DNA of 64,000 nucleotides from Thermodesulfobacteriota bacterium. Its GTDB lineage: Bacteria > Desulfobacterota > Desulfobacteria > Desulfobacterales > JACKCP01. Below the pieces are notes generated by a model. That model made no database searches. It was not told the origin of the DNA and saw nothing but the letters and a program-made list of their open reading frames with translations. The position numbers and the translations under genes were made by a program. The stretch lies in NCBI GenBank assembly GCA_051744925.1, contig JBNJDM010000001.1, forward strand, positions 980 through 64,979. Direction: 5' to 3'. This document shows, one piece after another, positions 7,519 through 33,864 of this stretch; the stretch's first letter is position 1; each line of letters starts with the position of its first letter.

Positions 7519-9174
7519 TTAATTTTTTAACAACTCATCCAGAGCCTGTTTAAGATCTTCATCTTTGAAAGGCTTATTTATAACTTTGTTTATTCCTGAT
7601 TCTTTTATTGTATTCGAATCAAATCTTTGCTTGCTTGACTGACCTATAAAATCACTTTGTGTTGTTATCATAATTATTGGAAGTTTGGATGAATCGTAAA
7701 GCTTTCTTGCTTTTTGAGTTACTTCAATTCCATTGATATCAGGCATGTTAAGATCTGTAATAAGAAGGTCAGGTTTTTCACTTTCAAGAGCTTCAAGAGC
7801 TTTTGCAGGAAATTCAAAAACAACAGGAAGGTATCCCATCTGATGAAGTTTCTGCTTGTAAATTCTCAGCATCATTTTTGAATCGTCTACAGCATATATT
7901 GTAAAAAGTTTTTTGTCAGTTTTCAGTTCTGCTGAAGCCATAATTTTTTCTACAATTTCATCTTCTCCCATTGAAGCCAGAAGATTTGTATAATGCTCCC
8001 TTGTGTCGGGATGTGCATTTTTTGCAAGATGCATTACAGCAAGATTGGAAAAACTTTTTTCCTTAATAAGCTGCTCAAATGTTCTGTCTGCTCCTGAATC
8101 GATTATTGTTCCGACAATATCTTTTGAGGATTTATCCATACCTGAAATCATATTTTTTATTCCTGCTGCAAGAATGGGGGAAAGGTTTTTATCAACAGCT
8201 CTTGCAGCTGCCATTCTAACCTGCTTTTCAGGATCTTCAAGGCCTGCAGCAAGGCTTATTGCCGCTTTTTCTGACGGAAGTTTTTCCAAAGCTTCATATG
8301 CTGCAAATCTGATGTTGGCATTGTCAGGATTTTGGGAAATAAGTTTTGAAACAGCTTTTATTGCACTTTTATCTCCTATGCTTCCAAGAACATTAAGAGT
8401 CATAATAATGGAATCATCATCTTCACATTTGAGGTTCTCAATTACGCCAGGAACAGCCTTTTCGCCTATCTCCACAAGCTTGTCTATAGCTCTGTTTCTT
8501 ATTGCTGTTGAATGGGAGTTCAAAAACTGCATAAGTTTATTTAGAGCATATTGATCCTGAACTTCAGACAGCTTGTCTACAATCAGAAGGTCAGCTTCTG
8601 TTTCTCCTGTAACCGCCTCTCCCAAAAGATTGATTGCAGCAGGTCCACCTACGTAAGAAAGAGCATTTACAGCCTCTTTCTTGAGTCCTGTGTGACCAAA
8701 ATATAAAAAATCGGCAATTTTTCGTATTGTTGAAGTAGACCCTATATTTGCAAGAGCTCTTATAGCAGCTGTTAAGATTCCTACATTTGTTTCATTAACA
8801 AGTATGTCATTTAAAGCTGGCACAGCTTCAGAAATCTGAAGTTCTCCTGCTACTTTAATAAGAATCGATTTATTTTTAACTTCGGGATCTTTTATATAAT
8901 CATTTATAAGTTCGTTGTGATTAAAAAACTTATCAATGAGAAGAGCGTGGATTCTCTTTTGTACAACAGCTTCATTTATTTCAAATTTAAGAAGATGTAC
9001 CAATGATGGATAAGCTATATTATCTTCGGCTTTATTTATTTCATACAAAACCTTGACCTTGCTTTTTTCTTCAAGTTCGGGGAAAAACTGAATAAGGGCC
9101 TTGGTTTTTACAATATCATTTTCTTTAATGCAGAATTTCAGCTCATTAATGAACTCTTCTGTTTTTACAGTCAT
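7519..9174 (-). CDS. HEAT-repeat protein with C-terminal CheY-like receiver domain
   Basis: About 420 aa of HEAT/PBS-lyase-like repeats (repeated A..AL..IG, e.g. IRALANIGSTSTI, VNALSYVGGPAAI, LNVLGSIGDKSAI). These are followed by REC motifs IYAVDDSK, DLLITDLNMPDINGIE, IIMITTQ and NKPF. It is the last gene of the che operon. Confidence 0.8.
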   Translation of the reverse strand: MTVKTEEFINELKFCIKENDIVKTKALIQFFPELEEKSKVKVLYEINKAEDNIAYPSLVHLLKFEINEAVVQKRIHALLIDKFFNHNELINDYIKDPEVKNKSILIKVAGELQISEAVPALNDILVNETNVGILTAAIRALANIGSTSTIRKIADFLYFGHTGLKKEAVNALSYVGGPAAINLLGEAVTGETEADLLIVDKLSEVQDQYALNKLMQFLNSHSTAIRNRAIDKLVEIGEKAVPGVIENLKCEDDDSIIMTLNVLGSIGDKSAIKAVSKLISQNPDNANIRFAAYEALEKLPSEKAAISLAAGLEDPEKQVRMAAARAVDKNLSPILAAGIKNMISGMDKSSKDIVGTIIDSGADRTFEQLIKEKSFSNLAVMHLAKNAHPDTREHYTNLLASMGEDEIVEKIMASAELKTDKKLFTIYAVDDSKMMLRIYKQKLHQMGYLPVVFEFPAKALEALESEKPDLLITDLNMPDINGIEVTQKARKLYDSSKLPIIMITTQSDFIGQSSKQRFDSNTIKESGINKVINKPFKDEDLKQALDELLKN

Positions 9175-11633: not shown

Positions 11634-14600
11634 TTATTGATTAAGATAGTTTTTTATAGTTATGAGAAGCTGTTCTCTGTCAAGCTTTATCTGATAATCA
11701 TCTATTCCAGCAGATTTACCTTTTTCTATATCTCCCTCGCCTGCCAGAGAAGTAAGTGCAACAACAGGTTTATCTGAAAATCTGTTGTCATTTTTGATTT
11801 TTGTAGTAAGTTGAAAGCCGTCCATATTAGGCATTTCAAGATCTGTAAGTATGAGGTTGAAATCGTTTTCTTCGGAATTTATTATATTCCATGCAACTTC
11901 ACCGTCTTCTGCTATTGTAACATCATATCCGTCTTCTTCGAGAAATCCTTTGACCTGGTTTCTGAAAAATGAAGAGTCTTCGGCAAAAAGTATTTTTATA
12001 TTCCCTGATTCACCGGTCTCAGGGTCAATATTTACAATATGTTCTTTTTCCGTGTACCATTCAGGGTGAAGTGTTTTAAAAAATTCATAAACATCAACCA
12101 TTAGAGTTGTCATATTATTAATTATAAGAGAACCCATGATTCCGGGCTGTTTAAGAGTTTCTTCATCAACTGAAAGCACAACATCAACAGCGTCAACAGG
12201 AGGGCTGACCATGAGCCCGACTTCTCTTCCTGTGAGCTGGAAAACTATAACCTCAATTTTTTCGTGTTCCGGAAGAGGCTGAACATTAGCTACTTCCCCA
12301 AGTTCATGCAGAGGCAAAGATCCGCCTCTGTACTGCACAACTCTCTGTCCCCCGGCAACTTCAATTTCTGTTGCCTTTATTCTTTCTATTCTCTGAACAA
12401 GATTAAGAGGTACTGCAAGCTGTTCATTTTCTCCGTTTCTAAAGAGGAGGAGTGATGCATGGTCTTTTAATCTGTCAGAAGATGTGTCCATTTTCTCTTT
12501 TTCTTCAGCAATCTTTTTAGAAGAAGATGCAGTAGAAAGCTGGCTCATTTCTGCAATTGATGCAACGTCAAGAATAAGAGCTACTTTGCCGTCACCCATA
12601 ATTGTTGCACCTGCATATCCTTTACAGTTTTTAACGTGTTTTCCAAGGGGTTTTACAACAATTTCTTCAGAGTCCATAAGTTCGTCGACTATGAGTCCGT
12701 ACCTGAATGTTCCTGCTGATACTACAGCAATATTGATTGCGCTGGCTGCATGATAACGCCTGTCAGATTCATTTCTTTCGCTTATTTCTTCTTCACTCAA
12801 GTCATCGTTCTGATTGGGGTTGAACAGATCCTTTGATCTTCTGTCTGCTACATTAGACCTTCTGTCTTGTTTTATTTCTCCTGTTTCAGGATCTTTATAT
12901 GTTTGTTCAATACCAAGAACATCAGAAAGCTTTATCAGGGGAAGAAGCATTCCTCTAAGTCTTACAACAGCAGCGTCTCCGACTTTTTCAATTTTTTCTT
13001 TTATGTCTCCTGCAGGTATTCTGAGAAGTTCATCAAGGTTGACCTGAGGTATTGCGTATTTTTCATGACCGGCTGAGATTATCTGACTTGGTATGATTGC
13101 AAGAGTAAGAGGGAGCTTGATTTTAAGAGAAGTTCCTCTTCCTACTTTGGAATCGATATCTATTATACCGCCGAGTTTTTCAAGGTTGCTTTTTACAACA
13201 TCCATGCCAACGCCTCTTCCTGAAACGTCAGTGACTTCCTCGGCTGTTGAAAACCCGGGTGCAAATATAAGGTTAGCTTTGTCTTTATCAGATAAAAGAT
13301 TGGCATCCTGCTCTGTAATAACCCCTTTTTTTATTGCAGCTGCTGATATTTTATCCGGGTCTATCCCTCCGCCGTCATCTTCAATTTCTATGTTGACCTG
13401 GCCTGCTTCATGATAGGCTTTAAGATTTATAGTACCCTGTCTTGGCTTGCCGGCCCTTTCTCTTGTATCAGGAGATTCGATTCCATGATCTACAGAGTTT
13501 CTTACAAGATGTGTAAGCGGATCATTAATTGATTCAATTATTGTTTTGTCAAGTTCAACATGTTTACCTTCGAGTTCCAGAACTATTTCTTTTCCAAGGG
13601 TTTGGGAAAGATCTCGTACAACTCTTGAAAACTTGTTAAATACATTGGAAATAGGCTGCATTCTTGTCTGCATAATAGCTTCCTGCAGCTCGGATGTAAT
13701 CATATCTATTCTCTGACTTGCAGATTCAATATTGTGGTGGTTGGAAGATGTAAGACCCTGAATAAGCTGGTTTCTGCTTAATACAAGCTCTCCTGCAAGA
13801 TTCATAAGGCTGTCAAGAAGGTTAACATTTACCCTTAACGAGCTAATTGTTTTTTTGGATGCATCATCTTGAGTATCTTGCTGATCAATGCCTGGGTCGC
13901 TGTTTGACTTTTCAGTTGAACTTTGCTGGTTTTGAGAAGCACTTTTGGAGGGTGTCTCAGAAACATCCGCAGGTTTTTTAGCAGAGGCCTGGGGCTGGGA
14001 GGATTTTTTAGCTGGTTGTTCAGCAGCAGGCTGTTCAGGTTTTTTCTCAGGCATTGCTGGCTCAGAAGCCTTTAAATTTTCAGTATCTGTATTTTTTTCT
14101 TCATGAGAATTCATCTGTTTTTCATCATCAGCCTGTGTCTCTTCTTCTGGTTCCGGGAGTTTTTCATCACTTATGTTAAAAACATATTCTGCATCAAGAT
14201 CAACAAGTATTGGAGCCATATCAGGCTCAATAATTGAGGCAAATAAAATAACAAAAGGTATTCTGTTTGGTATATCGTCTTCAAGTGTGCCTACATAGGA
14301 AATATCAACTTTGCAATCGAGAATTATTCCGCTTTTTAGAAGTGAATTTATAACTTCAAGCGGATTTTTATCTTTCTTTTGGATATCATGAATCAGATCA
14401 TATTCCAGAATATAAATAAATTTACCCTGTTTTTTTGCATGCTCAATGTCATATCTGTTCGATTTCAGAGCCGTAGCACTCATAGGATGCTTGATTTCGC
14501 ATACGTCTTCGATTGCTTGTTTTTCAGCATCAGGAAGAGTGTCGTTTGTTATATTCTTAAGGTCTGTGACGTATTCGTCAATATTTTGGTCATTGCTTGT

Positions 14601-14924
14601 TTCAATATTTGAGATAAGCTCCTGGAGTCTGTCGAAACTTTTTAAAAGAACGCTTATGGTTTCAGATGAAGGCATAAGCTCTTTATCTCTTATAAGACCG
14701 AGGATATTTTCCAGGTTGTGGGAAAGCTCTTTTATAACATCAAGTCCCATAAAGCCTGCTCCGCCCTTTACAGAGTGAGCTGCTCTGAAAACATTGTTGA
14801 CAAGTTCTTCGTCAATTTCTTCTCCCTGTTCCTCCAGGGCCAGCAAATCTGTTTCGATATCAGCCAGGTGTTCCAGCGATTCTTCAACATACATTTGCAA
14901 GGTTTCGTCGTCTTCAAAAAACAT
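11634..14924 (-). CDS. cheA: hybrid chemotaxis histidine kinase: Hpt, dimerisation, HATPase, P5, second CheW-like domain, receiver
   Basis: The Hpt phosphorylation site is FRAAHSVKGGAGFMG. The kinase core carries HLVRNSVDHGIE, DDGGGID and GRGVGMDVV. Two CheW-like modules are followed by a C-terminal REC (ILFAEDS, LILTDLEMPNMDG). Total length 1096 aa. Confidence 0.9.
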   Translation of the reverse strand: MFFEDDETLQMYVEESLEHLADIETDLLALEEQGEEIDEELVNNVFRAAHSVKGGAGFMGLDVIKELSHNLENILGLIRDKELMPSSETISVLLKSFDRLQELISNIETSNDQNIDEYVTDLKNITNDTLPDAEKQAIEDVCEIKHPMSATALKSNRYDIEHAKKQGKFIYILEYDLIHDIQKKDKNPLEVINSLLKSGIILDCKVDISYVGTLEDDIPNRIPFVILFASIIEPDMAPILVDLDAEYVFNISDEKLPEPEEETQADDEKQMNSHEEKNTDTENLKASEPAMPEKKPEQPAAEQPAKKSSQPQASAKKPADVSETPSKSASQNQQSSTEKSNSDPGIDQQDTQDDASKKTISSLRVNVNLLDSLMNLAGELVLSRNQLIQGLTSSNHHNIESASQRIDMITSELQEAIMQTRMQPISNVFNKFSRVVRDLSQTLGKEIVLELEGKHVELDKTIIESINDPLTHLVRNSVDHGIESPDTRERAGKPRQGTINLKAYHEAGQVNIEIEDDGGGIDPDKISAAAIKKGVITEQDANLLSDKDKANLIFAPGFSTAEEVTDVSGRGVGMDVVKSNLEKLGGIIDIDSKVGRGTSLKIKLPLTLAIIPSQIISAGHEKYAIPQVNLDELLRIPAGDIKEKIEKVGDAAVVRLRGMLLPLIKLSDVLGIEQTYKDPETGEIKQDRRSNVADRRSKDLFNPNQNDDLSEEEISERNESDRRYHAASAINIAVVSAGTFRYGLIVDELMDSEEIVVKPLGKHVKNCKGYAGATIMGDGKVALILDVASIAEMSQLSTASSSKKIAEEKEKMDTSSDRLKDHASLLLFRNGENEQLAVPLNLVQRIERIKATEIEVAGGQRVVQYRGGSLPLHELGEVANVQPLPEHEKIEVIVFQLTGREVGLMVSPPVDAVDVVLSVDEETLKQPGIMGSLIINNMTTLMVDVYEFFKTLHPEWYTEKEHIVNIDPETGESGNIKILFAEDSSFFRNQVKGFLEEDGYDVTIAEDGEVAWNIINSEENDFNLILTDLEMPNMDGFQLTTKIKNDNRFSDKPVVALTSLAGEGDIEKGKSAGIDDYQIKLDREQLLITIKNYLNQ

Positions 14925-18836: not shown

Positions 18837-18912
18837 GCCAACGTAGCTCAGCTGGCAGAGCTGCTGATTTGTAATCAGCCGGTCGGGGGTTCGAGTCCCT
18901 CCGTTGGCTCCA
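18837..18912 (+). tRNA. tRNA-Thr (anticodon TGT)
   Basis: 76-nt cloverleaf GCCAACG...CGTTGGCTCCA with anticodon loop TTTGTAA and T-loop GGTTCGAGTCC. Confidence 0.85.
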
Positions 18913-18929
18913 TTAAAATATTGTTTTGA

Positions 18930-19005
18930 GCGGGAGTAGCTCAGCTGGCAGAGCGTCAGCCTTCCAAGCTGAATGTCGCGAGTTCGAACCTCGTCTCCCG
19001 CTCCA
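18930..19005 (+). tRNA. tRNA-Gly (anticodon TCC)
   Basis: 76-nt cloverleaf GCGGGAG...CTCCCGCTCCA with anticodon loop CTTCCAA and T-loop AGTTCGAACCT. Confidence 0.85.
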
Positions 19006-19022
19006 TTTTTATTGGTAATCAG

Positions 19023-19099
19023 GCCCATGTAGCTCAGCTGGCAGAGCGTTTCCTTGGTAAGGAAGAGGTTCGCCGGTTCGAATCCGGCCATGGGCTCCA
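19023..19099 (+). tRNA. tRNA-Thr (anticodon GGT)
   Basis: Acceptor GCCCATG/CATGGGC, anticodon loop TTGGTAA, T-arm GCCGGTTCGAATCCGGC. By hand folding the variable region is one nt longer than usual, so the ends are +/-1. Confidence 0.8.
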
Positions 19100-19148
19100 G
19101 TTAATTTATTATGAAATTTTTTGAAAAGGGTTTAGGAGGGTTAAATAG

Positions 19149-20342
19149 ATGGCTAAACAAAAATTCGAACGTACTAAGCCTCATGTTAACGTTGGAACAA
19201 TTGGTCACATCGACCATGGTAAAACAACTCTAACAGCAGCTATAACAAAAAACTGCTCCCTTAAAGGTTGGGGTGAGAGCATTGATTTTGAAAATATTGA
19301 TAAGGCTCCGGAAGAAAGAGAAAGGGGTATTACAATAGCAACAGCACATGTTGAATATGAATCAGAAAAACGTCACTACGCACATGTTGATTGTCCTGGT
19401 CATGCTGACTATATTAAAAACATGATTACAGGTGCTGCGCAGATGGACGGTTCCATTCTTGTTGTTAGTGCAGATGACGGTCCAATGCCACAGACTCGCG
19501 AGCATATTCTTCTTGCACGTCAGGTTGGTGTTCCTAAGATCGTTGTTTTTCTAAACAAGTGTGATATGGTTGATGATGAAGAGCTTATTGAGCTTGTTGA
19601 AATGGAACTTCAGGAACTTCTTGAAGCTTATGATTTTGATCCGGATGAAACACCAATAGTAAGAGGTAGTGCACTTAAGGCTCTTGAAGCAGACGATGCA
19701 GACTCTGAGGATGTTAACTGCATATGGGAGCTTCTTAAAGCTCTTGATGATACAATTCCCGAACCTGAGCGTCTTGTAGACATGGATTTTCTTATGCCTG
19801 TTGAAGATGTTTTCTCAATTTCAGGTCGTGGTACAGTTGTTACCGGCAGGGTTGAAAGAGGAAAGATCAAGCCTGGTGAAGAAATTGAAATTGTTGGCAT
19901 AAAAGATACTATAAAGACTGTATGTACTGGCGTGGAAATGTTTAGAAAAATTCTGGACGAAGGTCTTGCAGGCGATAACGTAGGGCTTCTTCTTCGTGGT
20001 ACAAAAAGAGATGATGTTGAGCGTGGACAGGTTTGTGCAAAGCCAAAGTCAATTACTCCCCATACAAAATTTATGGCTGAAGTGTATATTCTTAATAAAG
20101 AAGAAGGCGGAAGACATACCCCGTTTTTTACAGGCTACAGACCCCAGTTCTTCTTTAGAACCACAGATGTTACAGGTATATTGAATCTTCCTGAAGGCGT
20201 CGAGATGGTAATGCCTGGTGATAATGTTACAATCAGTGCTGAACTGATAGCTCCTATCGCAATGGAAAAAGAGCTTAGATTCGCTGTAAGAGAAGGCGGA
20301 AGAACAGTTGGAGCTGGTGTTGTAGCGGATATTATTGAGTAG
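19149..20342 (+). CDS. tuf: translation elongation factor Tu
   Basis: [33 protein letters not shown]...DCPGHADY...NKCD; full-length canonical EF-Tu. Confidence 0.97.
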
Positions 20343-23952: not shown

Positions 23953-28053
<4,101 letters not shown>

Positions 28054-28065
28054 GGAGGGTATAAA

Positions 28066-31000
28066 GTGGATTCAATATATGATTTTTTTGCAAAACCCAC
28101 TGATCCCAAAAGCTATGAGGGAGTTCAGGTATCACTTGCCTCCCCTGAAGCGATCAGGGAATGGTCCCATGGCGAGATAACAAAGCCTGAGACAATAAAT
28201 TACAGAACATTCAAACCTGAAAGAGACGGTCTTTTCTGCGCAAAAATATTCGGGCCGACCAAGGATTATGAATGTAACTGCGGAAAATATAAAAGAATGA
28301 AGCACCGCGGAGTAATATGTGAAAAATGCGGTGTTGAGGTGATTCAGTCCAAGGTAAGAAGAGACAGAATGGCTCATATAGAGCTTATTACATCTGTTTC
28401 CCATATATGGTTCCTCAAGAGTCTTCCAAGTAAAATTGGAAACCTTCTTGATCTGACTTTGAAAAACCTTGAAAAAGTACTCTATTTTGACTGCTATATA
28501 GTTCTTGATCCAAAAGATACCGGTCTCAAGAAAATGCAGCTTCTTTCAGATGAAAAATATCATGAAGCTCTTGAACTTTACGGTTATGGATCATTTGAAG
28601 CAGGAATAGGTGCTGAATCTATTAAAAAACTTCTCTCAGAGCTTAATCTTGAAGAGATATATTCAGATCTTAAGGAAGAGATAAAACAGACTAATTCTGT
28701 GGCAAAAAAACAGAAAATTGCCAAAAGAATGAAGATTGTTGATGCCTTCAGAAGGTCAGGAATCAATCCTGAGTGGATGGTAATGGAAGTTGTTCCGATA
28801 CTTCCGCCTGACTTACGACCACTTGTTCCTCTTGAGGGCGGAAGGTTTGCAACTTCAGATTTAAATGATCTTTACAGAAGGGTAATAAACAGGAACAACA
28901 GACTTAAGCGTCTTGTTGAACTGAATGCCCCTGATATAATAGTAAGAAATGAAAAAAGGATGCTGCAGGAATCTGTTGATGTTCTTTTTGACAACGGCAG
29001 ACACGGAAGGGTTGTTACAGGTTCAAACAAAAGACCTCTAAAATCGCTTTCTGATACACTTAAAGGTAAGCAGGGCCGTTTCAGGCAGAACCTTCTTGGT
29101 AAGCGTGTCGACTATTCAGGACGTTCTGTTATAGTTGCAGGTCCCGGTCTGAGACTACATCAGTGTGGTATTCCTAAAAAAATGGCTCTGGAACTTTTTA
29201 AGCCTTTTATTTATCACCACCTGGAGCAAAAAGGGATTGTCTCAACAGTAAAAAGCGCCAAGAAAATGGTCGAAAAAGAGACACCTGAAGTATGGGATAC
29301 TCTTGAAGAGGTTGTAAATGAATATCCGGTAATGCTTAACAGAGCGCCTACTCTCCACAGGATGGGTATTCAGGCTTTTGAGCCTGTACTTATAGAAGGT
29401 AAAGCTATAAGGCTCCACCCCCTTGTTTGTACTGCTTTTAACGCAGATTTTGACGGTGACCAGATGGCGGTTCATCTGCCTCTTTCCATAGAGTCTCATA
29501 TTGAAGCAAGAGTGCTTATGCTTTCGAGCAATAACATTCTTTCTCCGGCAAACGGTTCGCCTATTATTGTTCCGACTCAGGATATAGTCCTTGGTCTTTA
29601 CTATCTGACCATGGAGATAAAGGGTGACAAAGGTGAAGGAACTGTATTTTCTTCCGTTGATGAAGTTCGTGTAGCATATGATTCCGGTAATATTGGTATG
29701 CATGCCGGTGTTACCGTAAGAATGAGGGACGGAAAAAAATATAAAACAACTGTAGGTAAGGTTATGCTTTGGGAAGTAATTCCCGAAGATGCAGTTCTTA
29801 CAATGAAACATATTAAGGTTTCTTCAGATAAAGAAGCAGAAGAGATTGTTAAGTTGGTTGAGTCAGGCAGCTCAACTTTTGATAAAGCTGCATCTAAATA
29901 TTCAGTGAGCAGCGCAAGTGAAACAGATCATCTCCTTGGTAAGCTTTCATCAAGAGAGTTTAAAAATCAGTTTTCACTTAAGTACGGAGATCTGACTGAA
30001 CTGTTTAAAAAGGACTCAGGTGATACAGCCGGACCTTATTTTGACGGTAAATTTTATCATATATTCGATATTCAGGAAAGAGAAGACGGAGTTCCTTTTG
30101 ATATCGTAAATCAGCAGATGAATAAAAAGAATGTAAAAGATCTCATCGATTATACATACAGATACACAGGAACCAAGAATACAGTTCTGCTTGCTGACCG
30201 TCTTAAGGATCTCGGTTATGAAATGGGTACCATAGGTGGTCTTTCCATTTCAATTAATGATATGATTATTCCAGAAGATAAATGGGATATTATTCACAGC
30301 TCCGAAGATAAGGTAAACGAGATTAACAGGCAGTATACTGAAGGTCTTATAACCCAGGGTGAAAAGTACAATAAAGTTGTGGATATCTGGGCAAAAACCA
30401 CAGATGATATTGCAGAGGCTATGATGAGTTATATGAACAAGCCTCCTGTAATTGAAAGTGGTGAAGATTTCAAAGATCCTATGGTCGGACGAATGAATGC
30501 TATATATATGATGGCAGACTCAGGTGCCAGGGGTAGTAAGGATCAGATGAGACAGCTTGCCGGTATGAGGGGTCTTATGGCCAAGCCTTCCGGTGAAATT
30601 ATTGAAACTCCTATTACTGCCAACTTCCGTGAAGGTCTTTCAGTTCTTCAGTATTTTACTTCAACTCACGGTGCCAGAAAAGGCCTTGCTGATACTGCTC
30701 TTAAAACTGCAAACTCAGGATATCTTACAAGGCGTCTTGCAGATGTTGCCCAGGATTGTATGGTTACAGAAGATGACTGCGGAACAAGGCTCGGTATTGA
30801 AATTGAGCCGCTAACCGAAAGTGGTGAAGTGATTCAGGATCTTGGCGAAAGAATTCTTGGAAGGGTGGCATCTGAAGATATACTCGATCCTGTGACAGAC
30901 AATGTTGTAATTAAAGCAGGCGATGAAATTAACGAAAAAGATGTAGCTGCAATAGACGACGCAGGTATTAAGAAATTAAGGATCAGATCTGTTCTTACAT

Positions 31001-32457
31001 GCCAGGCTGAAGACGGTGTCTGTGCTTCTTGTTACGGAAGAGACCTTGCTCTTGGTAAAAAAGTAGAGGTTGGTGAAGCCGTAGGTATTCTTTCCGCTCA
31101 GTCAATAGGGGAGCCGGGTACCCAGCTTACAATGAGAACTTTTCATATAGGCGGTACTGCAAGTCAGAAAGTTGAGCAGGCAGATATCAAAGCCAAGGCT
31201 GAAGGTACTATAAAGTTTGAGGGAATAAATTACGTTACCAATGCCGAAGGTCAGAGCGTTGTAATGAACAGAAGGGGCGGAGAATTTATTATTGTAGGAG
31301 AAAGCGGAAGAGAGCTCGAAAGAAACCGGGTAATCTATGGCGCGACACTACATGTTAATGACGGACAGAAAGTTAAAGGCGGAGATACTCTTGCTGTATG
31401 GGATCCGTTCACCACCCCTATTATTACAGAAGTTTCCGGTGTTGTAAAATTTGAAGATATAGTATCCGGTAAAACAGTTGCAGAACAGATTGACCCGGTA
31501 ACAGGAAAAGCAAGCCGAACAGTTGCTGATCATAAAACAACGGAATTCAGACCGAGAATTACTTTGAAAGATTCCAATGGAAAAGGAGTAAGACTTCCCG
31601 ACGGAAGTGACTACGCAAGATATTCACTTCCTGTTGGAGCTGTTCTTATGGCTGAGGAAGGTGATGAGGTTTTTGCAGGTGATGTTATTGCAAAACTTCC
31701 AAGAGCAACTACCAAAACCAAGGATATTACAGGTGGTCTGCCAAGAGTTGCTGAATTGTTTGAAATCAGAAAACCGAAGGAAACAGCAATTTTATCCGAA
31801 ATTGACGGTTATATAACTGTTTCAAGAGGAACAAAAGGCAAGCATAAAGTTATTGTTACTCCTGTAGATGTCGGAGAAAAGAAAGAGTATCTTATAACAA
31901 GGAGCAAGCAGCTCAATGTTTATGAGGGCGATTATGTAAGAGCTGGAGAAGCTCTCTGCGGAGGAGATATTAATCCCCAGGATATTTTGAATATCAAGGG
32001 AGAGATAGAACTTGCGAAGTATCTTCTAAATGAGGTTCAGGAGGTATACAGACTTCAGGGTGTTAAGATAAATGATAAGCATATAGAAGTTATTGTGCGT
32101 CAGATGATGAGAATGGTTAAAGTTGTAGATCCTGGTGATACAGATTTTATTGTGGAAGAGCAGATAGAAAGAAAAACTTTTGAACATGCCAATGCACAGG
32201 CTGTAGCAAGAGGTGAAATGCCGGCTCAGGGTGACCCGCTGATTCTTGGAATAACAAAAGCATCACTTTCAACAGACAGTTTCATATCTGCTGCATCTTT
32301 TCAGGAAACAACCAGGGTACTTACAGAAGCAAGTATCGCAGGAAAGGTTGACAGTCTAAAAGGTCTTAAGGAAAACGTAATTATGGGTCGACTGATTCCT
32401 GCGGGTACAGGAAAGAAAATGTACTGGGAAACAGATGTAGAAGCGGTTGAAGAATAA
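28066..32457 (+). CDS. rpoC: DNA-directed RNA polymerase subunit beta-prime, with lineage-specific insertion
   Basis: GTG start after GGAGG. Contains a zinc-finger [23 protein letters not shown], the catalytic [12 protein letters not shown], the bridge-helix and trigger-loop regions, and an SI3-like insert. 1463 aa. Confidence 0.97.
29791..30087 (+). other. parvulin (PpiC-type rotamase)-like domain inserted in-frame in rpoC
   Basis: About 99 codons lie between ...[13 protein letters not shown] and [14 protein letters not shown], segments that are contiguous in E. coli beta-prime. The inserted sequence is [61 protein letters not shown]...[19 protein letters not shown]. It follows the parvulin pattern H-I-x-V ... 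F-x-x-x-A-x-K-x-S ... L-G ... F ... G-x-x-x-x-x-F-Y-H-I-x-x-I. Confidence 0.6.
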
Positions 32458-32621: not shown

Positions 32622-32993
32622 ATGCCAACTATTAACCAGTTAATACGTAAGGGTAGGAAGCGGACTGCTCAGAAAAACAGCACTCCTGCTTTGAAAGGCG
32701 GCCCCCAGAAAAGGGGAGTTTGCACCCGCGTCTTTACGTCTACCCCGAAAAAGCCGAACTCGGCGCTGAGAAAAGTCGCCAGGGTAAGGCTTACAACAGG
32801 TATTGAGGTTACAGCCTATATTCCTGGTATAGGGCATAACCTTCAGGAGCATTCTGTTGTACTTGTGAGGGGAGGTCGTGTAAAAGACCTTCCGGGTGTC
32901 AGGTATCACATTGTTAGAGGTGCTCTTGATACATTAGGTGTAGAGGATCGTAAACAGGGTAGGTCCAAGTATGGTACAAAAAGGCCTAAATAA
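32622..32993 (+). CDS. rpsL: 30S ribosomal protein S12
   Basis: [13 protein letters not shown]...[17 protein letters not shown]... Confidence 0.97.
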
Positions 32994-33031
32994 ATTTTAA
33001 GAGTAAAATTTTTAAGGAAAAGAGATTTATA

Positions 33032-33502
33032 ATGCCGAGAAGAAGAGAAATTCCGAAACGCAAAGTTAAACCAGATTCAAGGTATAATAACGAACTTGTT
33101 TCCAGGTTTATAAACAAAATTATGCTGGACGGGAAAAAAAGTGTTGCAGAAAGAGTTGTTTATTCGGCGTTGGATCTTGTGGGAGAAAAAACAGGTGAAC
33201 CTGCTATAGAAGTATTTCAGCGGGCCATGGACAATGTAAGACCTTTTGTTGAGGTTAAGTCACGTCGTGTAGGCGGGTCCACATATCAGGTTCCAACCGA
33301 GATAAGACCACCCAGGCAGACAGCATTGGCCATGAGATGGTTAATTAATTTTTCAAAATCAAGATCTGAACAAGGTATGCCTAAAAAGCTGGCTGCAGAA
33401 TTTGTTGATGCAGCAAACAGCAGAGGCTCATCTGTTAAGAAAAGAGAAGATACCCACAGAATGGCTGAAGCAAACAAGGCTTTTGCTCATTATCGCTGGT
33501 AG
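33032..33502 (+). CDS. rpsG: 30S ribosomal protein S7
   Basis: [40 protein letters not shown]... Confidence 0.97.
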
Positions 33503-33558
33503 GGTGTTGTGAGATTGTTAATGCCGGTAAGCTAATCGGAAAAGCGAGAGATTAAATT

Positions 33559-33864
33559 ATGGAAACCAAGATTAGAATAAGGTTGCGGGCTTATGATCAC
33601 AAGCTGTTGGATCAGTCGGCTCTGGACATTGTAGACACCGCCAGAAAAACTGGAGCACAGGTTGTCGGACCGATTCCACTGCCAACTAAACTGAACAAGT
33701 TTTGTGTTTTAAGATCTCCCCATGTGAATAAAAAATCACGGGAGCAATTTGAAATCAGAACCCACAAAAGGCTGTTGGATATTCTTGAGCCGACGCAGCA
33801 GACAGTAGATGCTTTGATGAAGCTTGATCTGTCTCCTGGCGTAGATGTGGAAATTAAACTTTAG
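33559..33864 (+). CDS. rpsJ: 30S ribosomal protein S10
   Basis: [39 protein letters not shown]... Confidence 0.97.

Follow-up and report, generated by a model that had tools for sequence, protein, structure and literature searches.

What is a 99-residue segment that resembles a prolyl isomerase doing within the beta-prime subunit of a bacterial RNA polymerase (RNAP)? The question is raised by rpoC of a Thermodesulfobacteriota bacterium, carried on the 64,000 nucleotides of contig JBNJDM010000001.1 analysed here (hereafter, the window). An earlier note on this DNA had proposed that a parvulin domain of the PpiC type lies in frame within RpoC, and this proposal now stands on a Pfam Rotamase match, a family profile, AlphaFold2 and Foldseek results, and comparative data. 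The gene and the insert occupy the following positions.

28066-32457, + strand: rpoC, RNA polymerase beta-prime, 1463 codons with a GTG start (list of open reading frames; Pfam Rpb1 domains 1-5).

29791-30087, + strand: parvulin (PpiC-type) fold domain, in frame, aa 576-674, with boundaries accurate to within 1-2 residues.

The reading frame has what marks a bacterial beta-prime: Pfam Rpb1 domains 1 to 5 in order (E from 1e-80 to 2e-20), the catalytic motif NADFDGD (aa 459-465), and an rpoB-rpoC operon setting. Its alignment with Escherichia coli beta-prime (PDB 10ma_J and others) consists of two colinear blocks, the first pairing aa 4-574 with E. coli 4-585 and the second pairing aa 674 onward with E. 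coli 585 onward, at an offset of +89. The single break in this colinearity is the block of ~99 residues, which falls between E. coli residues ~584 and 585. The note's extra segment of that length at 29791-30087, contiguous in E. coli, is thus confirmed, and its translation agrees letter for letter. The site is empty in each of the ~90 distinct beta-prime sequences with solved structures in the PDB. Two metagenomic relatives, both RpoC fragments, are also free of the insert: P0020 is continuous across the junction (...YEVIPQDIPFEYIN...) and P0024 has a similar junction. Because these relatives read straight through, the boundaries of the insert can be fixed to 1-2 residues.

The match to PF04983 (Rpb1 domain 3), which from the Pfam description we take to be the pore-1 domain lining the secondary channel of nucleoside triphosphate entry, is split in two by the insert, its best stretch covering aa 490-609. 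The two flanks are as follows.

29533-29790, + strand: N-terminal part of the beta-prime pore-1 domain (Pfam Rpb1 domain 3), with a bacteria-specific hairpin just upstream of the insertion point.

30088-30444, + strand: pore-1 and funnel region resumes, up to the stretch aligned with the E. coli rim helices (~aa 738-793).

If the secondary-channel rim helices of E. coli are residues 649-704, as we assume, the stretch aligned with them begins ~64 residues downstream of the insert by the +89 offset and this numbering, and not ~50 residues away as had been estimated. The WE[IV]IP motif just upstream of the insertion point is conserved in 79/79 sequences of the comparative alignment, which holds the window and 78 further loci. 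In the domain scheme of PMC11515920 (Table 2), the insert falls on the C-terminal border of the bacteria-specific element beta'-bD4, at the point from which the universal domain uD3 continues.

Taken alone, the excised 99 residues match the Pfam Rotamase family PF00639 with 25.0 bits (E 3.9e-5; gathering score 21.7) and the NCBIfam model of PrsA-type isomerases with E 2.4e-5. Their 11 sequence matches in the PDB are all weak and all parvulins. When 1.84 billion cluster representatives were searched exhaustively with phmmer, six matches came back. Three are free proteins with multiple parvulin domains (E 5.7e-9, 2.7e-5, and 2.9e-4), and two are RpoC fragments from Joint Genome Institute (JGI) metagenomes in which a homologous insert occupies this position. 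Among the matches was also P0003, a 1534-residue repeat protein (E 3.6e-7), which is not RpoC and was discarded as spurious. A profile built from 39 insert sequences has as its best match the parvulin domain of Bacillus subtilis PrsA (E 1.1e-13), followed by other PrsA proteins, NmPin, BB0108, SurA, and Par10, and all 60 of the listed matches are parvulins; for PrsA, NmPin, and SurA, the E-values range from 1e-13 to 1e-10. Taken individually, 39/39 family members match PF00639, the best with E 1e-12. Apart from a sub-threshold NAPRTase match (E 0.093, 12.9 bits), no other Pfam family is found in the insert.

The structural prediction agrees with these results. An AlphaFold2 model based on a 14-sequence alignment has a mean predicted local distance difference test score (pLDDT) of 85.8 and a predicted template modelling score (pTM) of 0.79; the model from the single sequence is poor (pLDDT 57.5) and its parvulin matches are weak. 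In the alignment-based model, the order of secondary structures is beta-alpha-alpha-alpha-beta-alpha-alpha-beta-beta, with one extra short helix after beta2; the canonical parvulin fold is a four-stranded antiparallel sheet with its elements in the order beta-alpha3-beta-alpha-beta2. When this model is compared with the PDB by Foldseek, the top 50 matches are all parvulins, including PpiC, PrsA, Pin1, SurA, BB0108, and NmPin, with probability 1.00 and template modelling scores of 0.62-0.78. By sequence and by predicted structure, the insert is established as a genuine parvulin homologue with a parvulin fold.

The same insert is widespread. One genome per GTDB species was scanned with one degenerate pattern taken from the insert's end, and at least 133 of these species-level genomes have a homologous insert of 96-99 residues at this position. 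The pattern was derived from a trimmed alignment of nine sequences, one of 13 sequences being too diverse to yield any. Taxon labels cover the best 80 of the 133 genomes and read Desulfobacterales, Desulfobacteraceae, Desulfosarcinaceae, Desulfococcaceae, Desulfosalsimonadaceae, Desulfatitalea, Candidatus Desulfatibia, Olavius Delta 3 symbiont, or simply delta-proteobacterium. These labels fit the Desulfobacterota affiliation supposed in the earlier note. Two Desulfosarcinaceae within the Desulfobacterales are among the carriers: Desulfatitalea alkaliphila and the cultured Desulfosarcina widdelii PP31 (UniProt A0A5K7Z1W6), whose genome is complete. The motif of the window itself misses the scan pattern, and the true distribution must therefore be wider than 133. 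A genome scan with the window's own 8-mers gave no match.

Protein collections lead to the same group. A profile search of 5.8 billion proteins gave 20 RpoC fragments, and the insert is present in most of the fragments that extend across the site. Some of the insert-bearing fragments lie on long contigs ridden with frameshifts and showing the same operon order, and for several the precomputed Pfam lines already place PF00639 beside PF04983. Neither the insert alone nor a 219-residue segment had any match in word-indexed protein searches; this reflects a limit of the method and not an absence, because the exhaustive and profile searches did find relatives. The RpoC sequences of the clade retrieved by the indexed search are all truncated or frameshifted and at most 277 residues long (P0002, P0007-P0025; locus L003). 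Intact full-length RpoC proteins of the clade are present in the collection, among them that of D. widdelii (WP_155303873.1, in a 92-member cluster).

These data bear on whether the segment could be an artefact or a mobile element: the assembly might be chimeric, the block might be an intein or another selfish insertion, or its resemblance to parvulins might be fortuitous. We found no point that supports this explanation, and its probability is negligible. At least 133 independent genomes, along with many metagenome contigs, have the insert at the same codon position, and L084, an independent JGI metagenome contig, encodes an 88%-identical copy of the window's insert in an intact open reading frame of 1467 codons. 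The concern that the 297 nucleotides might be an assembly chimera, raised at the outset, is thereby refuted. The two copies differ by 28 synonymous and 15 non-synonymous codon changes. In addition, the G+C content of the insert matches that of the surrounding rpoC, no flanking direct or inverted repeats were found, and the insert has no intein or Hint match in Pfam. Its distribution among the best 80 of the 133 genomes is that of one order and is congruent with the flanks, and E-values down to 1e-13 together with the match in fold argue against chance resemblance.

Is the domain an enzyme? The residue register was taken from a HMMER alignment to B. subtilis PrsA, with columns counted over the 79 sequences, and the identities of the catalytic network residues are those we presume from the Pin1 and Par14 literature. 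The relevant elements are as follows.

29809-29811, + strand: His582, equivalent of Pin1 His59, in strand beta1 (KHIKV).

29899-29940, + strand: degenerate active-site loop, canonically yS-x-[C/D]-x-S-x3-GGDLG.

29908-29910, + strand: Ser615, at the catalytic Cys/Asp position (PrsA alignment).

29950-29973, + strand: family-specific extra helix SREFKNQF, with E631-F632-x3-F636, between beta2 and helix alpha4.

30058-30060, + strand: His665, equivalent of Pin1 His157, in strand beta4 (FYHIF).

The translation bears out the residues first singled out, namely the two histidines (H582 and H665), the Ser at the Cys/Asp position, and DHLLG in place of GGDLG. The second histidine is invariant (79/79), and the first is present in 69/79 sequences, the remainder having R, Q, or C. 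The catalytic column (Pin1 Cys113, Par14 Asp74, Asp in PrsA) contains Ala in 30 sequences, Ser in 24, and Gly in 22, and C or D in 0/79; the doubts already expressed about catalytic competence thus extend to the whole family. To our knowledge, one of these two residues is present at this position in every known active parvulin. The GGDLG element has the family consensus x-G-x-[ILV]-G. At the equivalent of Thr152 (five positions before the second histidine) the window has Asp and the family mostly Ala; at that of Ser154 (three before) the window has Lys, and the residue varies in the family (G/E/D/Q). The insert therefore has the Rotamase score above threshold, the fold, and the two active-site histidines of a parvulin, and lacks the Cys/Asp residue and the Thr/Ser hydrogen-bond network of a catalytic one.

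Conservation within the family extends to G601, F605, S613, D/E617 (73/79), G622, G625, E631-F632-x3-F636, F647, S655, Y664, and F667. Several of these belong to the generic parvulin consensus as seen in the PrsA alignment (G-x-dF, yS, G-x-[IL]-G, G-e-v-S); those that set this family apart are D/E617 and E631-F632-x3-F636. The extra helix (residues 59-65 of the model) lengthens the insert by 5-6 residues relative to PrsA and Pin1, and its E-F-x3-F motif is conserved in 75/79, 77/79, and 74/79 sequences at its three positions. An equation of F632 and F636 with Pin1 M130 and F134 was considered and withdrawn, since a five-residue gap in the PrsA alignment makes the correspondence ambiguous. Because of this extension between beta2 and alpha4, the proline-pocket residues M130 and F134 cannot be assigned with confidence. 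The net charge of the insert averages -7.6 (range, -14 to 0). A nucleic-acid-binding role, as for Par14, was rejected on account of this strongly acidic character. Finally, the strands run from aa 577 (start of beta1) to aa 673 (end of beta4), next to the conserved beta-prime residues P573 and V676-P677-F678. These linkers of 1-3 residues imply that the domain is held rigid and cannot swing.

A working prolyl isomerase built into RNA polymerase would be a bacterial counterpart of Pin1/Ess1 acting on the carboxy-terminal domain (CTD), with X-Pro bonds of a factor, of an element of the polymerase, or of the nascent protein as its substrates. The true parvulin fold and homology speak for it, as do the invariant second histidine with the first kept in 69/79, the conserved hydrophobic and aromatic residues of the cleft together with the acidic D/E617, and the purifying selection on the domain (see following). 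Yet we consider it improbable. The catalytic position is never C or D, the equivalents of Thr152 and Ser154 are not conserved, the first histidine is absent in 10/79 sequences, and the window's copy also lacks D617 and G622. Linkers of 1-3 residues leave no reach to mobile substrates. Pin1 mutants C113A and C113S lose most of their activity. Inactive parvulins that keep their fold are known in PpiD and in the P1 domain of SurA (PMC2956729). Most likely the insert is not an isomerase, a view that we hold because the Cys/Asp and Thr/Ser residues are lost, the domain is strongly acidic, and its linkers are short.

The evolutionary rates of insert and flanks are informative about its origin and about constraint. 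Insert length is 98 or 99 residues in 78/79 aligned sequences, and mean pairwise identity is 44% for the insert versus 76% for the flanks. Over the 244 unsaturated pairs, the median ratio of non-synonymous to synonymous substitution rates (dN/dS) is 0.19 in the insert and 0.09 in the flanks; dN itself is 0.19 versus 0.067, i.e., the insert evolves about three times faster. The divergences of insert and flanks are correlated (Mantel r 0.84), and 0/999 permutations reach that value. Judged by these codon comparisons, the insert is under purifying selection, weaker than that acting on the polymerase core. Congruence with the flanks and low dN/dS together indicate a single old acquisition followed by vertical descent. 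The scenario that we propose is that an ancestor of the Desulfobacterales would have captured a parvulin domain once, in frame, in the beta-prime pore-1 domain, and that its descendants would have inherited it vertically since.

The window's copy is an outlier in this family, with ~26% identity to the other inserts and 64% in the flanks. The window has 37.6% G+C, and the base composition of the insert matches that of the remaining rpoC. Its low G+C content and divergent RpoC suggest that the window comes from this group, from a branch that is deep or has evolved separately. The window and L084 both lack three residues that are nearly invariant in the family (D617 replaced by Ala, G622 by His, and S655 by Ala), which suggests relaxed or shifted constraint in their sub-lineage.

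A faster rate, an identity of 44% versus 76%, and a window copy that has lost several family-conserved residues at ~26% identity to the others are what one would expect of a neutral structural passenger, i.e., a compact domain with adjacent termini in a permissive surface loop, kept because its loss would destabilise beta-prime and having no ligand or regulatory role. The site is in a bacteria-specific surface element, and cyanobacterial beta-prime is naturally split nearby, within beta'-bD4 (PMC11515920 Table 2), which suggests structural tolerance at this place. Moreover, L030 and L058 tolerate a further insertion of ~50 residues alongside. Several observations nevertheless make this explanation rather unlikely. 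Length is held at 98-99 residues across the order, dN/dS is well below 1, and the family-specific E-F-x3-F, D617, and S655 exceed what a generic parvulin profile needs. The consistently strong negative charge also suggests a selected surface property.

The two loci just mentioned, from Desulfobacterales bacterium HSG16 and a Desulfococcaceae metagenome-assembled genome, are longer by 52 or 48 residues immediately ahead of the parvulin insert. These segments are as follows.

L030 ~2578-2733 and L058 ~2590-2733: second insertion, upstream of the parvulin insert in those loci.

The extra segment resembles a tandem duplication of the beta'-bD4 hairpin (...DL..R..VR....TTV..LL..) and represents a further insertion, younger than the parvulin one, at this permissive spot.

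What, then, would the domain do? The earlier note had raised a built-in isomerase, a chaperone, or a docking module; among these options, family-wide loss of the Cys/Asp and Thr/Ser residues favours a non-enzymatic module. We propose that on the pore-1 domain, which lines the secondary channel, the insert forms a surface module that is rigid, acidic, and non-enzymatic, and that it may serve there as a docking or steric (gating) element for a protein partner. From sequence, modelling, and analogy, a rigid docking or steric module of this kind is probably the right description. The analogy is with inactive parvulins and with other polymerase inserts: the parvulin domains of PpiD and SurA P1 keep the fold and the peptide-binding face and are inactive (PMC2956729), and the SI1 insert of the beta lobe provides a contact surface for TraR (PMC6970531). 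It is because of these precedents, SurA and PpiD on one side and beta SI1 on the other, that a role as a binding surface is put forward.

Some features of the cleft weigh against this proposal. Both histidines, L/I624, E631, F632, F636, D/E617 (73/79), and S655 are conserved near it. The acidic D/E617 lies two positions past the lost Cys/Asp and could conceivably substitute for it, with residual or altered catalysis. The conservation of the cleft residues may also reflect maintenance of the fold alone. Another reading of the same residues, which we regard as a long shot, is a built-in parvulin with a functional proline-peptide cleft, either catalytic through D/E617 or purely binding, that reads or switches an X-Pro bond, whether of a secondary-channel factor, sigma, omega, or a regulator specific to the Desulfobacterales. 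If true, this would amount to a Pin1/Ess1-like conformational control step integrated in a bacterial RNA polymerase.

In full-text literature searches, no parvulin or rotamase insert in RpoC was found described; older catalogues of RNAP inserts were outside the reach of these searches, and a prior listing without a name is possible. In public records the carriers go under the name "DNA-directed RNA polymerase subunit beta-prime", and one D. widdelii record reads "hypothetical protein". Since the records say only beta-prime, the insert is effectively unannotated in spite of automated Pfam matches. It is a lineage-specific RNAP insertion from a fold previously unreported for such inserts in the searchable literature. 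Lineage-specific inserts of bacterial RNAP tune pausing, factor binding, and promoter responses. The classes catalogued in the searchable literature all derive from a few beta-rich modules, and a rotamase-family fold in the catalytic subunit widens the range of folds that RNAP is known to recruit. The fold has been retained throughout the history of the Desulfobacterales, an ecologically important order whose members include sulfate reducers of marine settings, symbionts of gutless worms, and syntrophic partners of archaea that oxidise alkanes. The insert provides a clean molecular marker of 99 residues for this clade.

The remaining features of rpoC and of its neighbourhood are those of a conventional operon, with the gene order tuf-tRNA-secE-nusG-rplKAJL-rpoB-rpoC-rpsL-rpsG.

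23953-28053: rpoB, directly 5' of rpoC in the operon.

31165-31725 (approximate), + strand: SI3-like trigger-loop insert, a separate lineage-specific insertion common to E. coli-type beta-prime.

The SI3-like insert occupies ~aa 1034-1220, between MRTFHIGG (aa 1023-1030) and a block at aa 1223-1233, and is colinear with gamma-proteobacterial beta-prime; the parvulin insert is distinct from it, as the earlier note had held. Weak Pfam matches to biotin-lipoyl, hybrid-barrel, and M23 families at aa 1094-1297 overrun its C-terminal boundary (aa ~1220). An antisense reading frame at 29242-29811 has no family match and is spurious. By exact look-up, no record matches the RpoC encoded here, whether its first residue is taken as V or M. 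Downstream, rpsJ follows directly after rpsL and rpsG, with neither fusA nor tuf in between (32622-33864); the sole tuf of the window is upstream, where three clustered tRNA genes precede it and a fourth tRNA and secE-nusG follow (18837-20342). Further away on the opposite strand, 11634-14924 (-) encodes a CheA-like histidine kinase of 1096 residues with a C-terminal receiver domain, and near it 7519-9174 (-) encodes a response-regulator protein with HEAT-like repeats.

Among known systems, the lineage-specific inserts of RNAP (SI1 and SI2 of beta, SI3 of beta-prime, and the non-conserved domain of Thermus beta-prime) are likewise in frame, restricted to clades, and vertically inherited, and they leave the core intact. 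The neighbourhood of beta'-bD4 and uD3 is already known to tolerate insertions, as well as the cyanobacterial split (PMC11515920). The types of insert defined in that 2024 survey are BEAN (BBM2), HABAS (SBHM-like), and sLC, whereas the present one is a parvulin and thus none of these; the site given in that work is the "middle of bD4", whereas the insert lies at the C-terminal edge of bD4. The main text and supplements of PMC11515920 contain no parvulin, rotamase, prolyl isomerase, or Desulfo- taxon.

Pin1/Ess1 offers the closest parallel in setting. This parvulin is associated with the largest subunit of RNA polymerase II (PMC7994582), so that in both cases a domain of the parvulin family is physically tied to the largest subunit of a multisubunit RNA polymerase. 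However, Pin1/Ess1 is a separate, active enzyme specific for phospho-Ser/Thr-Pro, with a WW domain, a basic phosphate-binding loop, and a repetitive tail as substrate, whereas the insert is covalently built in. No WW domain is found in RpoC with Pfam, the insert has only two residues (SS) between HIKV and the first helix instead of the phosphate loop, and it lacks the catalytic Cys of Pin1; bacterial beta-prime, in turn, has no CTD. The family profile matches Pin1 weakly (E 1e-4 to 2e-3, over positions 21-92 only), compared with 1e-13 for PrsA.

The E. coli protein PpiC (Par10) is of similar size (92 versus ~99 residues), with the same fold and the same two histidines, and is matched by the family profile with E 2e-8 (1jns). 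In contrast to the insert, which has Ser and DHLLG, Par10 is a free enzyme with a catalytic Cys and an intact GGDLG. The nearest relatives by sequence and structure are found among PrsA, SurA, and PpiD (E 1e-13 for PrsA and 5e-10 for SurA, with PrsA, SurA, and PpiC at the top of the Foldseek matches). In these proteins, too, the parvulin is an internal domain of a larger protein, and the parvulins of SurA P1 and PpiD are likewise catalytically inactive, serving if anything in binding (PMC2956729). The hosts differ, since PrsA, SurA, and PpiD are secreted or periplasmic folding factors and the host of the insert is the catalytic subunit of a cytoplasmic RNA polymerase; the insert also differs by its extra helix of 5-6 residues (E-F-x3-F) and by Ala, Ser, or Gly at the Asp/Cys position. 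By its sequence and predicted structure, the insert is nearest to parvulins of the PrsA/SurA/PpiC type, and not to those of the Pin1 type.

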